Assembly (NCBI GenBank): GCA_903922735.1
Contig: CAIXUZ010000060.1
Coordinates: 239,883 to 263,882, forward strand
Length of the DNA: 24,000 nt
Reading direction: 5' to 3'
Source of the DNA: an uncultured Verrucomicrobia subdivision 3 bacterium
Lineage (GTDB): Bacteria > Verrucomicrobiota > Verrucomicrobiia > Limisphaerales > UBA11358
The notes beneath the pieces are model-generated. The model ran no database searches. It was not told the DNA's origin and saw nothing but the letters and a program-made list of their open reading frames with translations. Shown piece by piece: positions 6,959 to 19,353 of the stretch. Each line of letters begins with the position of its first letter. The first letter of the stretch is position 1. Made by a program: the position numbers and the translations under genes.

Positions 6959-7070
6959 CCACATCGAGCCCGACAATTCCATCTTTTCAAACGCCCTCAA
7001 CCGGACTATCCTTCCGTTCCGATTTTGAGCTGCGCGGAGGATTTCCCGGCGCAACTCCAAAGATTTTTGT

Positions 7071-8288
7071 ATGGCATTGATTGTTCAAAAATATGGCGGC
7101 ACGTCGGTCGGCAACACCGACCGCATCAAGAACGTCGCCAAACGCGTCGCGGAATACCGTGCGAAAGGCGACCAGGTCGTCGTCGTCGTCTCGGCGATGA
7201 GCGGTGTCACGGATGGTCTCATCAAGCTGGCCAAAGACATCGCCCCGCTCCCCAGCGAACGCGAGATGGACATGCTCCTGGCCACCGGCGAACAGCAGAC
7301 CATCGCGCTCACGGCCATCGCGCTTCACACCATCGGTGTTTCCGCCGTTTCCATGACCGGCGCCCAGGCGGGCATTGTCACCGACGGCGTTCACACCAAA
7401 GCCAAGATTCACAACATCACCCCGAAGCAGGTTCACGAAGCGCTTGACGCCGGCAACGTCGTCATCGTAGCGGGTTTCCAAGGTGAAACGGCGGCGGGCC
7501 AGATCACCACGCTCGGCCGTGGCGGCTCGGATTTGACGGCGATAGCGCTCGCCGCCGCGCTCAAGGCCGATCTTTGCCAGATTTACACGGACGTGGACGG
7601 CGTTTACACCACCGACCCGCGCATCGTGCCGACAGCGAAGAAGCTTCAGGAAATTTCCTATGATGAAATGCTCGAGCTGGCCAGCCTCGGCGCGAAGGTG
7701 ATGCAGAGCCGCTCGGTGGAATTTGCGAAAAAATTTGGAGTCGTGTTCGAGGTTCGCTCCAGCCTCAATGACAACCCCGGAACTATTGTGAAAGAAGAAA
7801 CGAAAAGCATGGAAGGCGTCGTCGTTCGCGGCGTTGCCCTCGACAAAAATCAGGCCAAAGTCACGCTCGTCGGCGTGCCCGACAAACCTGGCGTGGCCGC
7901 GAAGATTTTCAAGGCGCTCGGTGACGCGACCGTGAACGTGGACATGATCATCCAGAACATCAGCCACGGGACCAGTTCGCCCGCCACGGACATTTCCTTC
8001 ACCGCCGACAAACCGGATTTGCTCAAGGCGCAGAAGGTCATCGAAGGCTTGAAGGGTGAAGTCGGCTACCGCGATGTCATCACCGCCGAGAAAATCGGCA
8101 AGCTGTCCATCGTCGGCGTGGGCATGAAATCGCACACCGGCGTGGCCGGCAAGCTGTTCGAGACGCTCGCCAAGGAAGGCATCAACATTGACATGATTTC
8201 CACCAGCGAAATCAAGATTTCTGTCGTCATCGACCTCGCGAAGGGCGAACAGGCGGTAAAAGCCGTCCACGCGGCCTTCATCGGCTAA
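7071..8288 (+). CDS. lysC: Aspartate kinase
   Basis: The N-terminus MALIVQKYGGTSVG is typical of the amino-acid kinase family. The protein is 405 aa with two C-terminal ACT-like repeats (VTLVGVPDKPGVAAKIF..., LSIVGVGMKSHTGVAGKLF...). The longer antisense ORF 6987..8486 is a G/C-composition artefact. Confidence 0.9.
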   Translation: MALIVQKYGGTSVGNTDRIKNVAKRVAEYRAKGDQVVVVVSAMSGVTDGLIKLAKDIAPLPSEREMDMLLATGEQQTIALTAIALHTIGVSAVSMTGAQAGIVTDGVHTKAKIHNITPKQVHEALDAGNVVIVAGFQGETAAGQITTLGRGGSDLTAIALAAALKADLCQIYTDVDGVYTTDPRIVPTAKKLQEISYDEMLELASLGAKVMQSRSVEFAKKFGVVFEVRSSLNDNPGTIVKEETKSMEGVVVRGVALDKNQAKVTLVGVPDKPGVAAKIFKALGDATVNVDMIIQNISHGTSSPATDISFTADKPDLLKAQKVIEGLKGEVGYRDVITAEKIGKLSIVGVGMKSHTGVAGKLFETLAKEGINIDMISTSEIKISVVIDLAKGEQAVKAVHAAFIG

Positions 8289-8325
8289 ACTTGACCGATC
8301 CGACCATCGCTTGTAGTTTACGAAC

Positions 8326-8391
8326 ATGAATCGCAACCTGAACCTGCTGCTTACGAACGCGCTGCCAACCAGCGCGGCAGTCGGGTTTTGA
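8326..8391 (+). CDS. Candidate leucine-rich leader peptide (MNRNLNLLLTNALPTSAAVGF) upstream of leuA
   Basis: This is a 21-codon ORF with 5 Leu codons (8338, 8344, 8347, 8350, 8362), including an LLL run. Its stop (8389-8391) lies immediately 3' of the segment that can pair with the left arm of the downstream terminator. There is no obvious Shine-Dalgarno, but lysC, leuA and satP in this window lack one too. Confidence 0.5.
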   Translation: MNRNLNLLLTNALPTSAAVGF

Positions 8392-8445
8392 GCGTTCACA
8401 AGATTTATCAAACCCACTGCCCGACGGCGGTGGGTTTTTTGTTTT
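8358..8445 (+). promoter_or_regulatory. Putative transcription attenuator controlling leuA (alternative hairpins)
   Basis: Segment 8376-8387 (GGCAGTCGGGTT) and segment 8426-8436 (GGCGGTGGGTT) are near-duplicates. Both are complementary to 8411-8421 (AACCCACTGCC), so antiterminator (2:3) and terminator (3:4) are mutually exclusive. There is an extra GC hairpin, CGCGCTG/CAGCGCG, at 8358-8376 inside the leader ORF. Confidence 0.55.
8411..8445 (+). terminator. Rho-independent terminator (ends lysC transcript and/or acts as leuA attenuator terminator)
   Basis: An 11-bp stem pairs 8411-8421 with 8426-8436 (one G.U), with loop CGAC. It is followed by TTTTTTGTTTT. Confidence 0.8.
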
Positions 8446-8484
8446 AACCCGGCCGCCGGATGGCAATAATACGAAAGCCAGACC

Positions 8485-10149
8485 ATGCAAAAAGATCCGT
8501 CGAAAAAATACCAGCCGTTTCAACACGCGCCGAAATTAACCGACCGCCAGTGGCCGGGCCGCACGCTCACCCACGCGCCGCGCTGGGCGAGCGTGGATTT
8601 GCGCGATGGCAACCAGGCGCTGGCCGTGCCGATGAACGTGTCGCAGAAACTGGAATTATTCCAGACGCTCGTGAAGATCGGCTTCAAGGAAATCGAAGTT
8701 GGTTTTCCGTCCGCGTCGAACACCGAATTCGCCTTCAACCGTTTACTCATCGAAAAAGGCCATGCGCCGGACGACGTGTGGTTGCAGGTGCTGGTGCAGG
8801 CGCGCGAAGATTTAATTGAGCGCACCATCGAATCGCTCGTCGGCGCGAAAAAGGTCATCATCCACATGTATAACTCGACGTCGCCGGCGCAGCGCCGCGT
8901 GGTGTTCGGCAAGTCGAAGGACGAGATCAAGGCCATCGCCGTGAATGGCGCGCAGATGATCAAGGACCGTTTACACCGGCTCACGGAAAATGGAACCGAA
9001 GTGATGTTGCAATATTCGCCGGAAAGTTTCTCGGCGACGGAACTGGAATACGCGAAGGAAGTTTCTGAAGCCGTCATGGATGTCTGGCAGCCGACACCGC
9101 AGCACAAGATGATTTTGAATCTGCCGGACACCGTCGAGGTGGCCATGCCGAACGTATATGCCGACCAGATCGAATGGATCTGCCGCAACATCAAGCAGCG
9201 CGACTCACTCATCATCAGCCTGCACGCTCACAATGACCGCAGCACCGGCGTGGCCGCAACGGAGCTTGGTTTGCTCGCCGGCGCGGATCGCGTCGAAGGC
9301 ACTTTGTTCGGCAACGGCGAACGCACCGGCAATCTGGACATCGTGACCGTGGCATTGAATCTTTACATGCACGGCATCAACCCGAAGCTGGATTTCTCGA
9401 ATCTCCATCCCATCATTGACGTTTACGAGCGTTGCACCGGGATGTCGGTGCCGCCCCGCCAGCCTTATGCAGGCGAACTGGTTTTCACCGCGTTCAGTGG
9501 GTCACATCAGGACGCGATCAAAAAAGGTTTAGCCGAACGGGAGCAGAACGGCGGCCAAGCCCACTGGGATGTGCCGTATCTCACGATTGATCCGGCAGAC
9601 ATCGGCCGCGAATACCGCGAGGTCATCCGCGTCAATTCGCAATCCGGCAAGGGCGGCGTCGCTTACTTGCTGGAAAGTGAATTCGGCATCGAGCTGCCGA
9701 AGGATATGCAGCGCGAGTTCGGCCCCATTGCCAACGACGCCGTGGACCAGCTTGGACGTGAAGTCAGCGGCACGGAACTCAAGGCGATGTTCTGGAAGGA
9801 ATATGTCGAGCGCAGTTCGCCGTGGCAATTGTCCGGTTTTGAAACGGAAAGTAAAAATGGCGTGGTTAAATGCCGCGCAAAATTCCTGCGCTACGGCCAG
9901 CCAGTCGTTTTCTGCGGCGAGGGTAACGGCCCGCTGGCGGCGCTCGTCCATGGTTTGGGAACCGTCGGCGCTCGTTTTGAAATCTCCAATTACAGCGAAC
10001 ACGCCTTAAGTTCCGGGGAAGGTGCGGCGGCGATTTCCTACATCCAGGTCAAATCCGCCGACGGCAAAACCCGCTGGGGCGCGGGCGTGGACACGAATAT
10101 CGAGCTTGCCTCGGTGCGCGCGGTATTGAGCGCGCTAAACCGGTTGTGA
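8485..10149 (+). CDS. leuA: 2-isopropylmalate synthase (long form with C-terminal regulatory domain)
   Basis: Motifs RWASVDLRDGNQAL and LHAHNDRSTGVA...GTLFGNGERTGN are characteristic of alpha-IPM synthase. The 554-aa length fits the long LeuA type. Confidence 0.9.
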   Translation: MQKDPSKKYQPFQHAPKLTDRQWPGRTLTHAPRWASVDLRDGNQALAVPMNVSQKLELFQTLVKIGFKEIEVGFPSASNTEFAFNRLLIEKGHAPDDVWLQVLVQAREDLIERTIESLVGAKKVIIHMYNSTSPAQRRVVFGKSKDEIKAIAVNGAQMIKDRLHRLTENGTEVMLQYSPESFSATELEYAKEVSEAVMDVWQPTPQHKMILNLPDTVEVAMPNVYADQIEWICRNIKQRDSLIISLHAHNDRSTGVAATELGLLAGADRVEGTLFGNGERTGNLDIVTVALNLYMHGINPKLDFSNLHPIIDVYERCTGMSVPPRQPYAGELVFTAFSGSHQDAIKKGLAEREQNGGQAHWDVPYLTIDPADIGREYREVIRVNSQSGKGGVAYLLESEFGIELPKDMQREFGPIANDAVDQLGREVSGTELKAMFWKEYVERSSPWQLSGFETESKNGVVKCRAKFLRYGQPVVFCGEGNGPLAALVHGLGTVGARFEISNYSEHALSSGEGAAAISYIQVKSADGKTRWGAGVDTNIELASVRAVLSALNRL

Positions 10150-13175: not shown

Positions 13176-13466
13176 ATGCACGTTGTGATCCGCACATATT
13201 ACGGCAAAGGCACCAAAGCACTGTTCGACGCCGGTGAGCAGCACAAAGCCGAGCTGCAGCGCCTTATGCGCACCGTTGAGGGACTGGTCAGCTACACGCT
13301 GGTCCGCGACGGCCAAGGCGGTTATTCCGTGACCGTCTGCAAAGAAAAACGCGCCCTCCGGCAAAGCCGTAAAAAAGCCGTGGAATTCCTCAGCAAACAT
13401 GCTCCGGGGAAGAACTTGGCCGCCATGCACATCTACGAAGGCAAAGTCATCGCCCACGTCCAATAA
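13176..13466 (+). CDS. Small hypothetical protein (96 aa), possibly ferredoxin-like/ABM-type fold
   Basis: GAGGTG lies 6 nt upstream of the ATG. Third positions are G/C-rich. The fold guess rests only on the overall pattern (MHVVIRTYYGKG...GLVSYTLVRDGQGGYSVTVC) and is weak. The larger antisense ORF 13056..13550 was rejected. Confidence 0.6.
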   Translation: MHVVIRTYYGKGTKALFDAGEQHKAELQRLMRTVEGLVSYTLVRDGQGGYSVTVCKEKRALRQSRKKAVEFLSKHAPGKNLAAMHIYEGKVIAHVQ

Positions 13467-13641
13467 GCGGCGCGGAATCCGGATCGCCGGTTTTCCAAAG
13501 CACCGGCTCCCAGTGGTGGCACCACCTGCCAAGATGCTCGTTCCACCCAATTTTGACGGAAACGGCGCTAAAATGTTGATTTTAAACTGCTTCCAGCGAT
13601 TTTTGCCTTGGAAACGCCCGTTTTGAGCTTGGGAGAAAACG

Positions 13642-13851
13642 TTTTTCCCAAGGGGATTTTCTTTTTTCCCAAGGGGTAAAAGGTTTTTCCCAAGGGAAAT
13701 CTCTCTTTCCCCAAGGGGAAAACGCTTTTTCCCAACGGAAATCCCTCTTTTCCCAACGGGAAAATGTCTTTCCCCAAGGGGATTTTCTCTTTTCCCAAGA
13801 GGAAAATGGTTTTTCCCAAGGGAAATTTTATTTTCCCCAAGCCTAAAAGGT
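13642..13851. repeat. Ten tandem 21-bp repeats with core TTTYCCCAAGGGRAAA
   Basis: The CCCAA anchor recurs at 13647, 13668, 13689, 13710, 13731, 13752, 13773, 13794, 13815 and 13836, exactly 21 bp apart with no indels. Many units carry a 7-bp inverted repeat (TTTTCCC..GGGAAAA). Degenerate or inverted copies lie just upstream (13600-13641, e.g. CTTGGG at 13628-13633). Confidence 0.9.
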
Positions 13852-14129
13852 CGGGCTGAAGCCGGTCAGGCCGGATCCGGACGGTTTCCAATCATACCCG
13901 GGACAAACCTCCTCTCCCAGCGGGTTGGCCGAGGTAAAAACAGCTATCGCCAGCGCGCCTCATGGAACTGGAGGACGTTCAATACCTCATCGCCGAGGCC
14001 ATCAAAGAACTGGGGCCGGCGTAACGACGCGCCGCCTTTGCTGAACCGCTCGGCAAGGAAATCACCGGCGTAAAAAAGCGATGGACAGGAACTTACCGAC
14101 CAAATAGAGTCAAACCTTAAAAAAGGATA

Positions 14130-14163
14130 GGCCAACAAACCCGCCGTCCATTATCTGTTGGAC
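14130..14163 (+). other. Short inverted pair of integron-type core sites (GGCCAAC ... GTTGGAC); truncated attC or attI-like simple site
   Basis: GGCCAAC (14130-14136) and GTTGGAC (14157-14163, fits GTTRRRY) are separated by 20 nt. That is too short for a normal attC. GTTGGAC is the exact reverse complement of the R'' box of the next attC (14680-14686). Confidence 0.4.
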
Positions 14164-14796
14164 ATCATAGCACGCGTATGCGAATCCCGACAATTGCCAC
14201 CCTTCTGATTCTGCTCTCTTACGCATCAGTCGTTCGCGCCGACGAGCCCCTCGCGCCGCCGGCACGCTACGAAGTGCAGAACTCGTCCCACAAGTATGTT
14301 GCCACTCTCGATCCGAAGACCGGCGTGGCGGTGCGCGCCACGGGTTCTTCCAACATCCTCTGGACAGCGACGAACTGGTTTCGAGTCGCCTTTCTAGCAG
14401 ATGATGGCCATCACTTTGTTACAGGTTGCGACGGCATGAACCTCATTCCCCAAGATTACACGAAAGACCTGGTGTTGGTTACCTTCTGGCAACAGGACAA
14501 GAAGATTCGAGACCTGACCGTGGGAGAGTTGTTTCCAGACACGCGCATTTTGGAGAAGACTGTTTCGCACTATCACTGGGGCAGCATCACGGGCATCACG
14601 AATAGCACGCTGATTGTCAGCAGATGCGACGGCAAGGTGGTGCGGTTTGACGTGACCACCGGGAGGATCACGAAATGATGTCCAACAAGGCGCTGGAGCC
14701 AACAGCCGTTATGCCACTCACTTTGATGATCACCGACCACATCACATCACCGACTTCGGTCACGCCGCTTTCCACGGCTGTGGCTCAGCTTGGTCG
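14158..14796 (+). mobile_element. Putative integron gene cassette 1 (ORF + attC)
   Basis: It is bounded by G|TTGGAC (14157|14158) and G|TTAGGC (14796|14797). It contains one ORF that starts 20 nt after the left boundary and ends 1 nt before its attC. Circularising it would give R' GTTGGAC, perfectly complementary to its own R'' GTCCAAC. Confidence 0.65.
14178..14678 (+). CDS. Hypothetical secreted protein (166 aa), cassette-borne
   Basis: The signal peptide is MRIPTIATLLILLSYASVVRA|DE. I recognise no family. The ORF fills the cassette. Confidence 0.7.
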   Translation: MRIPTIATLLILLSYASVVRADEPLAPPARYEVQNSSHKYVATLDPKTGVAVRATGSSNILWTATNWFRVAFLADDGHHFVTGCDGMNLIPQDYTKDLVLVTFWQQDKKIRDLTVGELFPDTRILEKTVSHYHWGSITGITNSTLIVSRCDGKVVRFDVTTGRITK

Positions 14797-14802
14797 TTAG
14801 GC
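14680..14802 (+). mobile_element. Integron attC recombination site (123 bp)
   Basis: R'' is GTCCAAC (14680-14686, fits RYYYAAC). A 5-nt unpaired spacer follows. Left arm GCTG[G]AGCCA[A]CAGCCGT (14692-14709) pairs with ACGGCTGTGGCTCAGC (14774-14789), giving 16 bp with two single-base bulges (G14696, A14702). A variable loop spans 14710-14773, followed by a 6-nt spacer. R' is GTTAGGC (14796-14802, fits GTTRRRY). The site starts 2 nt after the ORF stop. Confidence 0.75.
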
Positions 14803-14822
14803 GCACTTGCGCTCCATCATAA

Positions 14823-15188
14823 ATGAAATCCATTCGAGAGCACGTCCGGTCAGAGTGGCTATACAAGTTGAGCGTGTATTTGTGTGCCACCGTGCCTCTT
14901 TGCTTGGGACTGATTTGGATATACACATTTGGATTTACGTCCTATCGCAGCCATTTGCGCTTTGTTGGTATCCCACTTGGCTTTGCATTCGTCGCTCTTG
15001 CAGTTAGCATGATGGCGATGCGCATATGGGCAGTTATGATTTCAGTAGTTCTTGCATTAGCTACCACCATTTTCTCATTTATGGTTGCCCTCTTAGGGCT
15101 TTGGTTTTATTGGAGTGTCGTGTTCCTCGGTGTTGCTTATGTGACCATCATTTTCGAGCGATTCCGCAACCGAGATACTTGGACATGA
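14823..15188 (+). CDS. Hypothetical small membrane protein (121 aa, ~3-4 TM helices), cassette-borne
   Basis: Hydrophobic segments include VYLCATVPLCLGLIWIY, IPLGFAFVALAVSMMAM, VMISVVLALATTIFSFMVALLGLWFYWSVVFLGVAYV. Codon usage is visibly more A/T-ending than in neighbouring genes. The ORF starts 26 nt after the G|TTAGGC boundary. Confidence 0.6.
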   Translation: MKSIREHVRSEWLYKLSVYLCATVPLCLGLIWIYTFGFTSYRSHLRFVGIPLGFAFVALAVSMMAMRIWAVMISVVLALATTIFSFMVALLGLWFYWSVVFLGVAYVTIIFERFRNRDTWT

Positions 15189-15195
15189 TAGATGC

Positions 15196-15228
15196 GCCTA
15201 ATATCAGGATAGGCTGCAAAGATTAGAC
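15196..15228 (+). other. Degenerate or terminal attC remnant (GCCTAAT ... ATTAGAC)
   Basis: GCCTAAT (15196-15202) lies 7 nt after the ORF stop. It is the exact complement of A+TTAGGC, where TTAGGC is the first 6 nt of this putative cassette. Two downstream xTTRRRY-like sites begin with A: ATTAGAC at 15222-15228 and ATTAAGC at 15293-15299. There is no convincing long stem, so this call is weak. Confidence 0.35.
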
Positions 15229-15240
15229 GAATTTCTGAAA

Positions 15241-15282
15241 ACAAAAAAGCGCGGACGGCTTTCGCCCTCCGCGCTTTTGAAT
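15241..15282. terminator. Bidirectional rho-independent terminator between convergent genes (cassette ORF and pnp)
   Basis: The stem AGCGCGGA (15248-15255) / TCCGCGCT (15268-15275) is flanked by an A-run on the left (ACAAAAAA) and a T-run on the right (TTTTGAATTT). Confidence 0.75.
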
Positions 15283-17946: not shown

Positions 17947-19353
17947 TTAAGCCGCCATTTTTGATTGTTTCCACACAAACTGACGGCGGGTCTGCCCGGT
18001 CAGCTTGAATTTTTCGCCGATGCGCAGGCCCTCCACCCAGAAAATTTCGCCGGTGCCCGTCGTGGCCAAAACCAGTTCGCGACGCCGCGCGGCGGGAATT
18101 TTGGCGTTCATGAACAAATCCTGCAACTTCACCGCCGACTTTAAGCCGATCGGCTGGAAGCGATCACCCGCACGCCAGTGGCGCAATATGATTTCGCCGC
18201 CGATTTTGTCCGCATCGAAAAACTCTGTCTGGTGGGGCGAGCGTCCCCGCGAGCCGCTGTATTTTTTCACCGCCCAGTAAATTTCCAGAGCACCCAACTC
18301 AAACCGCCCCGCCCTGCCCGATAACTTAATTTTCAATTCATCCGCGTTGAATGCAGCCGCCGCATGCTTCCGTAACGTGATCTTCCCGTCCCCGTTGCGG
18401 GCGATGGACAAACCGGAACCGACACTCACAAATTTCCCGGGCGACTGGCGCAATTGCTCGATCAACTCAAAATCCGCAGGCATGCCCGCCGGGATAAGTT
18501 GTCGCTGTAAAACTTTACGTTGCACGGCGACGGATAACTGGTCAAAACCGTTTACGCTTTCCGCTTTACGCTTTACGCTTTTGTTTTCAAGCCAGTTCCG
18601 CGCCGCAGCGCTGGCAAATTCCGCCTCGGCACCAACAATTTCCATCAGGCGCAAAACGGTCTTTTCCACGCCCCGCTGGTAGTTTTTCCGCAGCCGGGGC
18701 AACAGATCATTCCGGATCCGGTTGCGCAGATAATCCGCAGAATCATTCGAGGCGTCGTGGCGGAACCGCATTTTATTTTCCCGCGCCAGTACCAGCAGTT
18801 CCGCCTTGGTCAAGCCCAGCAGCGGGCGGACGAGTGAGATTTTTTTGTCCACCGGCGAGGATGATCGCCATTTCATGCCCGCCAGACCTTCGCCGCCGGA
18901 ACCGCGCAGCCAGCGCAGGAAAAAAAGCTCCACCTGATCATCCGCATGGTGCGCCAGAGCCACAACGGAAAGCTTTTCCTGCCGCGCCACGCGGGCAAGA
19001 AATTCATGGCGCAGATTGCGGGCAGCCATTTCGACGGAGAGCTTTGACTGCACAGCCAAACCGAAAACATCGCCCCGGCCGCTAAAGAACGGCAGCCCCA
19101 TTTTTTTTGCGGTCTGGCGGACGAAGGCTTCATCGGCATCACTGGCCCGGCCCCGCAGGCGGTGGTTGAAATGCGCGACCGAAAGGCTCCAGCGATTTGC
19201 CTGGGCAAGAACGTGGAGTGCGTGCAGCAAAACCATCGAGTCCACGCCGCCGGAGACGGCGACGAGGATTTTCTGCTCACGCGGAAGCAACCGGCGCTGC
19301 TGAATCGAGGCTTCCACCCGCTGGAGGATGTGGCTCACGCAACCAGCTTGCAT
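17947..19353 (-). CDS. tilS: tRNA(Ile)-lysidine synthetase
   Basis: The PP-loop motif ILVAVSGGVDSMVLLH lies near the N-terminus. The protein is 468 aa and has the typical TilS C-terminal region (RHWRAGDRFQPIGL). Confidence 0.85.
   Translation of the reverse strand: MQAGCVSHILQRVEASIQQRRLLPREQKILVAVSGGVDSMVLLHALHVLAQANRWSLSVAHFNHRLRGRASDADEAFVRQTAKKMGLPFFSGRGDVFGLAVQSKLSVEMAARNLRHEFLARVARQEKLSVVALAHHADDQVELFFLRWLRGSGGEGLAGMKWRSSSPVDKKISLVRPLLGLTKAELLVLARENKMRFRHDASNDSADYLRNRIRNDLLPRLRKNYQRGVEKTVLRLMEIVGAEAEFASAAARNWLENKSVKRKAESVNGFDQLSVAVQRKVLQRQLIPAGMPADFELIEQLRQSPGKFVSVGSGLSIARNGDGKITLRKHAAAAFNADELKIKLSGRAGRFELGALEIYWAVKKYSGSRGRSPHQTEFFDADKIGGEIILRHWRAGDRFQPIGLKSAVKLQDLFMNAKIPAARRRELVLATTGTGEIFWVEGLRIGEKFKLTGQTRRQFVWKQSKMAA

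Follow-up and report, generated by a model that had tools for sequence, protein, structure and literature searches.

The 24,000-nt stretch of DNA analysed here (the window) is of chromosomal origin. Its genes include leuA, a gene for a DUF1573-cytochrome c protein, bioB, a GDSL lipase gene, pnp, an rpsO-like gene, and tilS, and also the gene for a giant kumamolisin/Ig protein. The encoded PNPase shares 98% identity with the PNPase of MAGs that bear the label Verrucomicrobia subdivision 3 or Limisphaerales. Between a 96-aa ORF (13176–13466) and the pnp terminator lie a degenerate leader, a tandem array of ten 21-bp units, and two orphan ORFs (Table 1). Elsewhere in the window, two long ORFs overlap on opposite strands (6987–8486, minus; 7071–8288, plus); the codon score favours the plus-strand ORF of 405 aa, and the minus-strand ORF of 499 aa has no Pfam family.

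Table 1. Features in and around the array (window coordinates unless a contig is named) and copies of the two-gene cassette elsewhere in the genome
Feature	Position	Strand	Remarks
Segment absent in relative L013	13467..15240	.	Holds the leader, the array, and the two orphan ORFs
Leader, degenerate	13551..13641	+	TTTTGAC box at 13551-13557, then T-tracts every ~10-11 bp
Spurious (FPLGKxx)n ORF across the array	13568..13891	-	Not a gene
Two degenerate "cap" units, TTTTTGCCTTGGAAACGCCCG and TTTTGAGCTTGGGAGAAAACG	13600..13641	+	Conserved in the sister array
Dyad with 11-pair arms, CTTGGGAGAAAACGTTTTTCCCAAG, at the leader/array junction	13628..13652	.	Inverted half-unit facing unit 1
Array of ten 21-bp units	13642..13851	+	Invariant core TTTYCCCAA(G), variable linker, 42-bp A/B super-repeat
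Promoter-like site TGGACA-17-TAGAGT between array and next gene	14082..14110	+	Consensus match only
Orphan gene downstream, co-oriented	14178..14678	+	166 aa, signal peptide; no Pfam/PHROG family
Possible small membrane-protein ORF	14823..15188	+	121 aa; poor codon score; no Pfam/PHROG family
pnp terminator	15243..15276	-	Synteny with relatives resumes here
Cassette copies	C11:121970-123295, C49:2904-4202, C49:44873-46192, C41:480-1811
Further cassette copies	Contigs C38, C29, C57, C56, C79, C53, C51

Comparison of gene order indicates that the region from 13467 to ~15240 is an inserted or variable segment of ~1.8 kb, which close relatives lack. Synteny with the ten closest relatives ends at the pnp terminator (about 15223–15244), and in relative L013 the 96-aa ORF lies ~55 nt from that terminator. 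The array is present in none of the 80 pnp loci of relatives, and no syntenic copy was found; the window copy is therefore dispensable. The analysis revealed no transposase, no terminal repeats, and no target duplications. The region downstream of the array, which the earlier note had described as a putative cassette array, turns out to be part of this 1.8-kb insertion with its two orphan ORFs rather than an integron-like array. No homologue of the 166-aa protein encoded by the first of these was found in 162 congeneric genomes. A 20-codon ORF, MELEDVQYLIAEAIKELGPA, located between the array and this gene (13963–14025, plus), is possibly a remnant or a chance ORF.

The array is strictly periodic. 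CCCAA occurs ten times, at 13647, 13668, and onwards to 13836, in steps of exactly 21 bp and with zero indels, so that the ten indel-free units first noticed from the sequence alone are borne out by the spacing of the motif, by TRF, and by comparison with shuffled sequence. TRF reports a period of 21 (9.5 copies, 68% matches) and a better-fitting super-repeat of 42 bp (4.9 copies, 80% matches), because odd and even units alternate. The motif TTTYCCCAA has ten matches in the window, all of them inside the array, versus 0.85 ± 0.93 (maximum 4) in shuffled sequences (n = 100). The GC content is 0.43 in the array versus 0.58 in the window. The units abut head-to-tail, and their linkers of 5–9 nt are variants of each other.

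The conservation within the units is asymmetric. Of the palindrome that had been proposed as the basis of each unit, the left block stands: all 18 units of the window array and its sister array (described below) contain TTT[T/C]CCCAA. The full 16-bp palindrome, TTTYCCCAAGGGRAAA, does not; it is exact in one of the ten units of the window and has at most one mismatch in six. Its right arm, GGGRAAA, is variable and wanting in about half of the window's units (every second one). In the window array, 86% of the deviations from the consensus fall inside one 9-nt linker stretch (permutation p = 0.0015), and the variable positions of the sister array and of an array on contig C11 cluster in the linker in the same way. 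Only 5 of 31 arrays show such clustering clearly (Fisher p = 0.04), and in the window it may partly reflect the ancestry of the A/B super-repeat. The caps that had been recognized at the left end, CCTTGG (13611–13616) and CTTGGG (13628–13633), are present and also kept in the sister array elsewhere in the genome.

The window array is a member of a genome-wide family. A TRF run on the whole assembly (4.48 Mb; genome 95% complete) yields 119 rows of period 21, 34 rows of period 42, and 21 rows of period 63, which merge into ~40–50 arrays of at least 95 bp, including arrays on large chromosomal contigs; a few GC-rich 21-bp repeats inside ORFs, which are probably coding, were left out of this count. 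There are 39 distinct consensus units among the arrays, with GC contents ranging from 0.30 to 0.74. Many units contain short dyads (TTTCCCA-AGAC-TGGGAA, ACATCGATGT, CACATGTG, CTGCCCGGGCAG), others contain none, and TTTCCCAAG is common to six arrays of this genome. In composite arrays, the unit type switches block-wise and the 21-bp register is kept. Arrays of the TTTCCCCAAGGGG type, which have the same period and nearly the same core as the window array, are also present on unrelated metagenome contigs, in one case immediately 3' of a tRNA gene, and a recurring reader for a TTTCCCCAAGGGG-like core is possible.

Further copies of the window motif in the same genome and copy-number changes in steps of 21 bp had been named as things to look for, and both were found. 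The motif occurs in one other place, the sister array (C72:47016–47191), which is 85% identical and comprises 8 units instead of the 10 in the window. Both arrays have two degenerate first units and an atypical last unit (…CCCCAAGCC[T/A]AAAA…), which identifies them as copies of one ancestor, two units apart. Their homology, as detected by BLAST, is restricted to the end of the leader and the array (13597–13852) and ends at the last unit. The window array is an orphan copy of a lineage-amplified module of leader and array that duplicates on its own.

Other repeats are found in the same genome and beyond. A contig from a microbial mat (ORBV01005844; L128:3102–3181) carries a 21-bp array of four TTTCCCCAAGGGGCCCGGCCA units directly 3' of a tRNA gene. 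Tandem repeats of heptamers are very common throughout the genome (239 TRF rows of period 7 and 100 rows of period 14), with AAAGCGG/CCGCTTT as the commonest unit (37 rows); more than half of them lie outside called genes, although the non-coding portion of the genome is only ~17%. An example in the window is TTTACGC (4.4 copies; 18551–18581), which lies within tilS. A REP-like dispersed palindrome, GAGACTCCTYACGTCGTCTCCTAC, is located beside several arrays (e.g., C72:46900–46960, C20:148250, and C45:16990).

Most arrays are accompanied on one side by a conserved stretch of 100–130 nt, the leader. An nhmmer profile of the leader recovers 25 copies at E < 1e-4, nearly all of which abut an array, and the leader precedes at least 25 arrays other than that of the window. 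Its T-tracts (TTTTTG…) are on one strand only, and the distances between their starts peak at 9–12 and 19–22 nt, a spacing that follows the helical repeat of DNA. The leader of the window is a degraded copy that is recognizable by comparison with the sister locus, with BLAST homology from ~13597. No protein family recurs beside the leader-bearing loci.

The leader box TTTTGACCnnTTTTTGGACAAAACCACCC is absent from 400 sampled genomes of the phylum. Within the genus, 7 of 163 genomes contain a 19-nt part of this box, with eight copies in the present genome and one copy in each of the others. In two relatives, the box precedes further 21-bp arrays of yet other sequence. In three others (L133, L134, and L135; ~1495–1550), the leader box TTTTTGGACAAAACCACC is present without an array and appears to be the −35 region of a promoter (TGGACA-17-TAAGAT) located ~20 nt before a gene for a secreted protein. 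There are hints in these sequences that the leader was derived from a promoter. One leader subtype contains TTGACC-17-TATACA, ending ~7 nt before the array. However, no sigma-70 promoter or consistent −10 element is common to all leader types, and none was found in the leader of the window.

The arrays show an orientation bias relative to the genes that follow them. The next gene downstream is co-oriented with the direction from leader to array in 25 of 32 arrays; for the upstream gene, the ratio is 18:16. All ten arrays linked to FN3 genes are co-directional with the next gene, and the ratio among orphan arrays alone is 15:7, which is not significant (p = 0.13). The genome contains 11 FN3-like genes in two subfamilies and 11–12 copies of a gene for a 151-aa fibre-like protein. 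They form a two-gene cassette, in which the gene for a small protein with a helical hairpin and an FN3 domain is followed by the fibre-like gene. About ten arrays sit 130–430 bp upstream of an FN3 gene, often with the fibre-like gene next and with an AT-rich, promoter-like spacer between array and FN3 gene. The cassettes are mosaics that combine fibre genes with 86–96% identity from copy to copy, divergent FN3 genes, and hypervariable arrays. Hardly any copy of the fibre gene exists in 40 relatives, and none was found in viral contigs, which argues against a phage origin of the cassette and for a private expansion in this genome.

The association with FN3 genes does not extend to the majority of arrays. 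The window array, its sister, and ~25 other arrays have no FN3 gene, and searches of the window from 13852 to 15240 with tblastn and jackhmmer yielded no FN3-like ORF or remnant. Orphan arrays precede unrelated genes, including rlmN, rsmI, an MFS transporter gene, rph, and several genes for secreted proteins. Since most arrays are detached from the FN3 gene, the array is not simply the private operator of that gene. The predicted structure of one FN3 protein (pLDDT 88.8) consists of a long N-terminal helical hairpin and a C-terminal FN3 domain; comparison with PDB and BFVD matched only the FN3 domain and returned no DNA-binding fold. Moreover, two FN3 proteins that are 86% identical are encoded beside arrays with clearly different units. 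Both the model and this pair weaken, but do not refute, the idea of an FN3 protein that recognizes its own array.

Strong curvature is predicted for the window array. In a wedge model, the ratio of end-to-end distance to contour length is 0.49, compared with 0.93 ± 0.055 for random genomic 210-mers, and the predicted curvature vanishes at a period of 19 or 23 bp. However, the 39 arrays are no more bent than 600 tandem arrays of random 21-mers (Mann-Whitney p = 0.57), so that curvature is a generic consequence of the 21-bp period, and there is no sign of selection for it. The suggestion that the array represents phased bent DNA therefore agrees with the strong curvature predicted for it but describes what any 21-bp tandem repeat would do.

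The interpretation that we tentatively favour, and to which we give close to an even chance, is that the array is a non-coding set of protein docking sites that lie on the same face of the DNA and shape the adjacent promoter region. Among the possibilities raised in the earlier note, a non-coding protein-binding array is the best supported, on the grounds of its strict register, its invariant core, and the lack of coding; the version modelled on iterons or sopC did not hold up (see below). Several further observations count in favour of an array that acts at the level of DNA. The strict register is kept in ~40 arrays with unrelated units, the conservation of the core is position-specific and asymmetric, and the signature of a structured RNA is absent. 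Arrays of the TTTCCCCAAGGGG type recur on unrelated contigs, the genes downstream are mostly co-oriented, the FN3-linked arrays are followed by AT-rich, promoter-like spacers, and some of the repeat periods reported in the literature are not divisible by 3. Together with the 21-bp register, the helical phasing of the T-tracts suggests that the double helix is what matters. What counts against a binding array is the diversity of the repeats: some 20 unrelated unit types would require either many specific binders or a single reader of DNA shape. No candidate binding protein emerged from the analysis, and the FN3 proteins encoded beside arrays are predicted to have no recognizable DNA-binding fold. 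Also unfavourable to a binding array are the similar FN3 proteins with different units, the non-significant orientation bias of the orphan arrays, the small share of arrays with clustered variable positions, and the lack of the array in close relatives.

If the array does serve as a protein-binding tract, it would be the variable body of a stand-alone module of leader and array that has been multiplied in this genome. The core TTTYCCCAA(G), presented in direct orientation every 21 bp, or two helical turns, would offer ten places on one face where a sequence-specific protein could dock. Binding of this protein, beside the T-tract-phased leader, would be cooperative, and the nucleoprotein tract formed in this way would determine how active or accessible the next promoter is, in this case that of the secreted-protein gene at 14178–14678. 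Gain or loss of whole units would alter the length of the tract and leave its helical phase unchanged.

It is also conceivable, if somewhat unlikely, that the array is part of a selfish or neutral, satellite-like module, which would be non-autonomous and BOX-like in its layout, with a body that turns over by slippage and unequal exchange. Its 21-bp period would then be inherited rather than selected. The following observations speak for such an origin: window and sister locus share nothing beyond ~13597–13852, with homology ending at the last unit; the window copy lies inside an insertion that is missing from relatives; eight copies of one leader box occur in this genome versus none or one in each of 162 congeners; unit variants are amplified block-wise; many arrays are located at contig ends; and the predicted bend of the units does not exceed that of random 21-mers. 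By contrast, drift should give rise to periods of 20 or 22 bp, whereas the period is strict in ~40 arrays of unrelated sequence. Moreover, the core is invariant while the linkers vary, the arrays are biased in their orientation relative to downstream genes, and neither a transposase nor terminal repeats or target duplications were seen.

A transcribed repeat RNA is an unlikely explanation, despite several features that would suit it. The leader would contain a promoter, and the array would form either a 5' leader or a stand-alone RNA with repeated hairpins or motifs. The direction from leader to array mostly agrees with that of the next gene, the subtype with TTGACC-17-TATACA has a plausible promoter aimed into the array, and the TTTTTGGACAAAACCACC box serves as a putative −35 element of TGGACA-17-TAAGAT in three relatives. 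Hairpins of 4–8 bp are possible in many units, the predicted single-strand fold is modestly better than that of shuffled sequences (z = −2.5), and bacterial satellites of 52 nt have been reported to be transcribed in B. coagulans. However, a −10 element is not consistent across leader types and is missing from the leader of the window. Among the stem mismatches in 21 arrays with a consensus stem, G:T and A:C are equally frequent (59 each), which means that wobble pairs are not tolerated on either strand, unlike in an RNA hairpin under selection. The left arm and the "loop" are invariant and the right arm is gone in half of the window's units, a pattern that fits sequence read-out rather than a hairpin. 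No terminator was found 3' of the array, Rfam has no matching family around the window or at six related loci, and the FN3 genes have an AT-rich, promoter-like region of their own after the array. A CsrB-like GGA sponge was considered and rejected, as CsrA (PF02599) was not found in the genome and control genomes gave matches.

An extension of the favoured reading of the array as a protein-binding tract, itself an unlikely one, is a portable cis-element in which the curved T-tract leader nucleates a protein filament or carries an upstream activating surface. In that case, the array would act as a track or as a spacer whose length can vary, tuning the promoter in quantized steps of two helical turns with its helical phase preserved, and the module would move alone and bring unrelated genes under its control. 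Such an element would also explain why repeats of constant size and free sequence occur across bacterial phyla.

A classical iteron or a partition centromere of the parC/sopC type, belonging to an integrated replicon, is very improbable. The iterons of R6K, P1, pSC101, and lambda ori are direct repeats of ~19–22 bp with same-face spacing and bent flanks containing A/T-tracts, and they act via one protein that binds cooperatively. The window array resembles them in its direct repeats of about two helical turns, its same-face spacing, and its position beside A/T-tract DNA. It differs from them in that the window, in agreement with the lack of an adjacent rep or par gene that had been noted, has no rep, par, or integrase gene, the neighbours being bioB, the GDSL lipase gene, pnp, and tilS. 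Furthermore, ~40 loci with unrelated units, including loci on large chromosomal contigs, do not fit the logic of a single origin, and no protein family recurs beside the loci that bear a leader. The likeness to iterons and to sopC/parC that had been suggested for the array is therefore not sustained. CRISPR arrays share with it an A/T-rich leader followed by regular, often partly palindromic repeats. The two are distinguished by the 21-bp period, by units that abut without unique spacers, and by a window without cas genes.

The least probable reading is that the array encodes a lysine-rich heptad-repeat protein, (FPLGKxx)n, on the minus strand; even together with the strict iteron or centromere reading, it has only a very small chance of being correct. 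The ORF at 13568–13891 exists as originally described and is open over 107 codons, in keeping with a 21-bp unit of 7 codons, but a unit of this length is stop-free in a given frame in ~70% of cases by chance, the codon score (0.041 per codon) falls short of the 5th percentile (0.09) for called genes with 90–130 aa, the start codon is an unconserved TTG, the N- and C-terminal flanks are wholly different in the sister array, the array is open in four frames simultaneously, three related arrays have stops in all six frames, and there is no Pfam match.

Among known systems, tandem arrays of regulatory sites provide a parallel to the favoured binding array. ToxR binds TTTTGAT heptads at ctxAB, and phosphorylated BvgA (BvgA~P) stacks at Pptx and Pfha; in both cases, a variable number of tandem sites upstream of a promoter is occupied cooperatively. 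The window array resembles them in its repeated sites upstream of a putative promoter and in a number of sites that can vary. By contrast, the arrays of ToxR and BvgA are short, serve one regulator, and do not form a genome-wide family of variable sequence. The BOX elements of Streptococcus pneumoniae (boxA-boxB(n)-boxC) are dispersed, intergenic elements in which one end is conserved and the number of internal tandem units differs; their boxB, 45 nt in length, does not vary in sequence from copy to copy, and they end in a conserved boxC. They share with the present module its modular structure, the many dispersed copies, the conserved end, and the variable number of units. In the present module, however, unit sequences differ from copy to copy, and the distal end is not conserved.

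The closest match is a class of "enigmatic" bacterial tandem repeats of constant size (20–21 or 52 nt) and variable sequence, which are described by Subirana & Messeguer in the accessible part of PMC8161180 as non-coding and species-specific, with many sequence families per genome. This account (IJMS 2021), which summarizes Subirana & Messeguer, J Bacteriol 2020, covers Bacillus and other groups; it points out that 21 nt correspond to two helical turns and proposes either protein polymerisation on DNA or small RNAs. A companion paper reports that the 52-nt class is transcribed in B. coagulans. Judging from its sequence, the window array belongs to this class of constant size and variable sequence, which has been described without a mechanism; all three features, namely a constant unit of 21 nt, differing sequences, and a non-coding state, are present in the arrays of this genome. 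A literature search found no description of such repeats that is specific to Verrucomicrobia. The accessible part of PMC8161180 mentions neither a shared leader nor a shared family of neighbouring genes, whereas at least 25 of the arrays described here have in common a leader with helically spaced T-tracts. To this class, the present genome adds the shared leader, a module of leader and array that duplicates as a unit of its own, and the detachment of most copies from the FN3 gene. With ~40 arrays, 11 FN3 genes, and 12 fibre-like genes in a single genome, this lake bacterium offers a compact test bed for the entire class.
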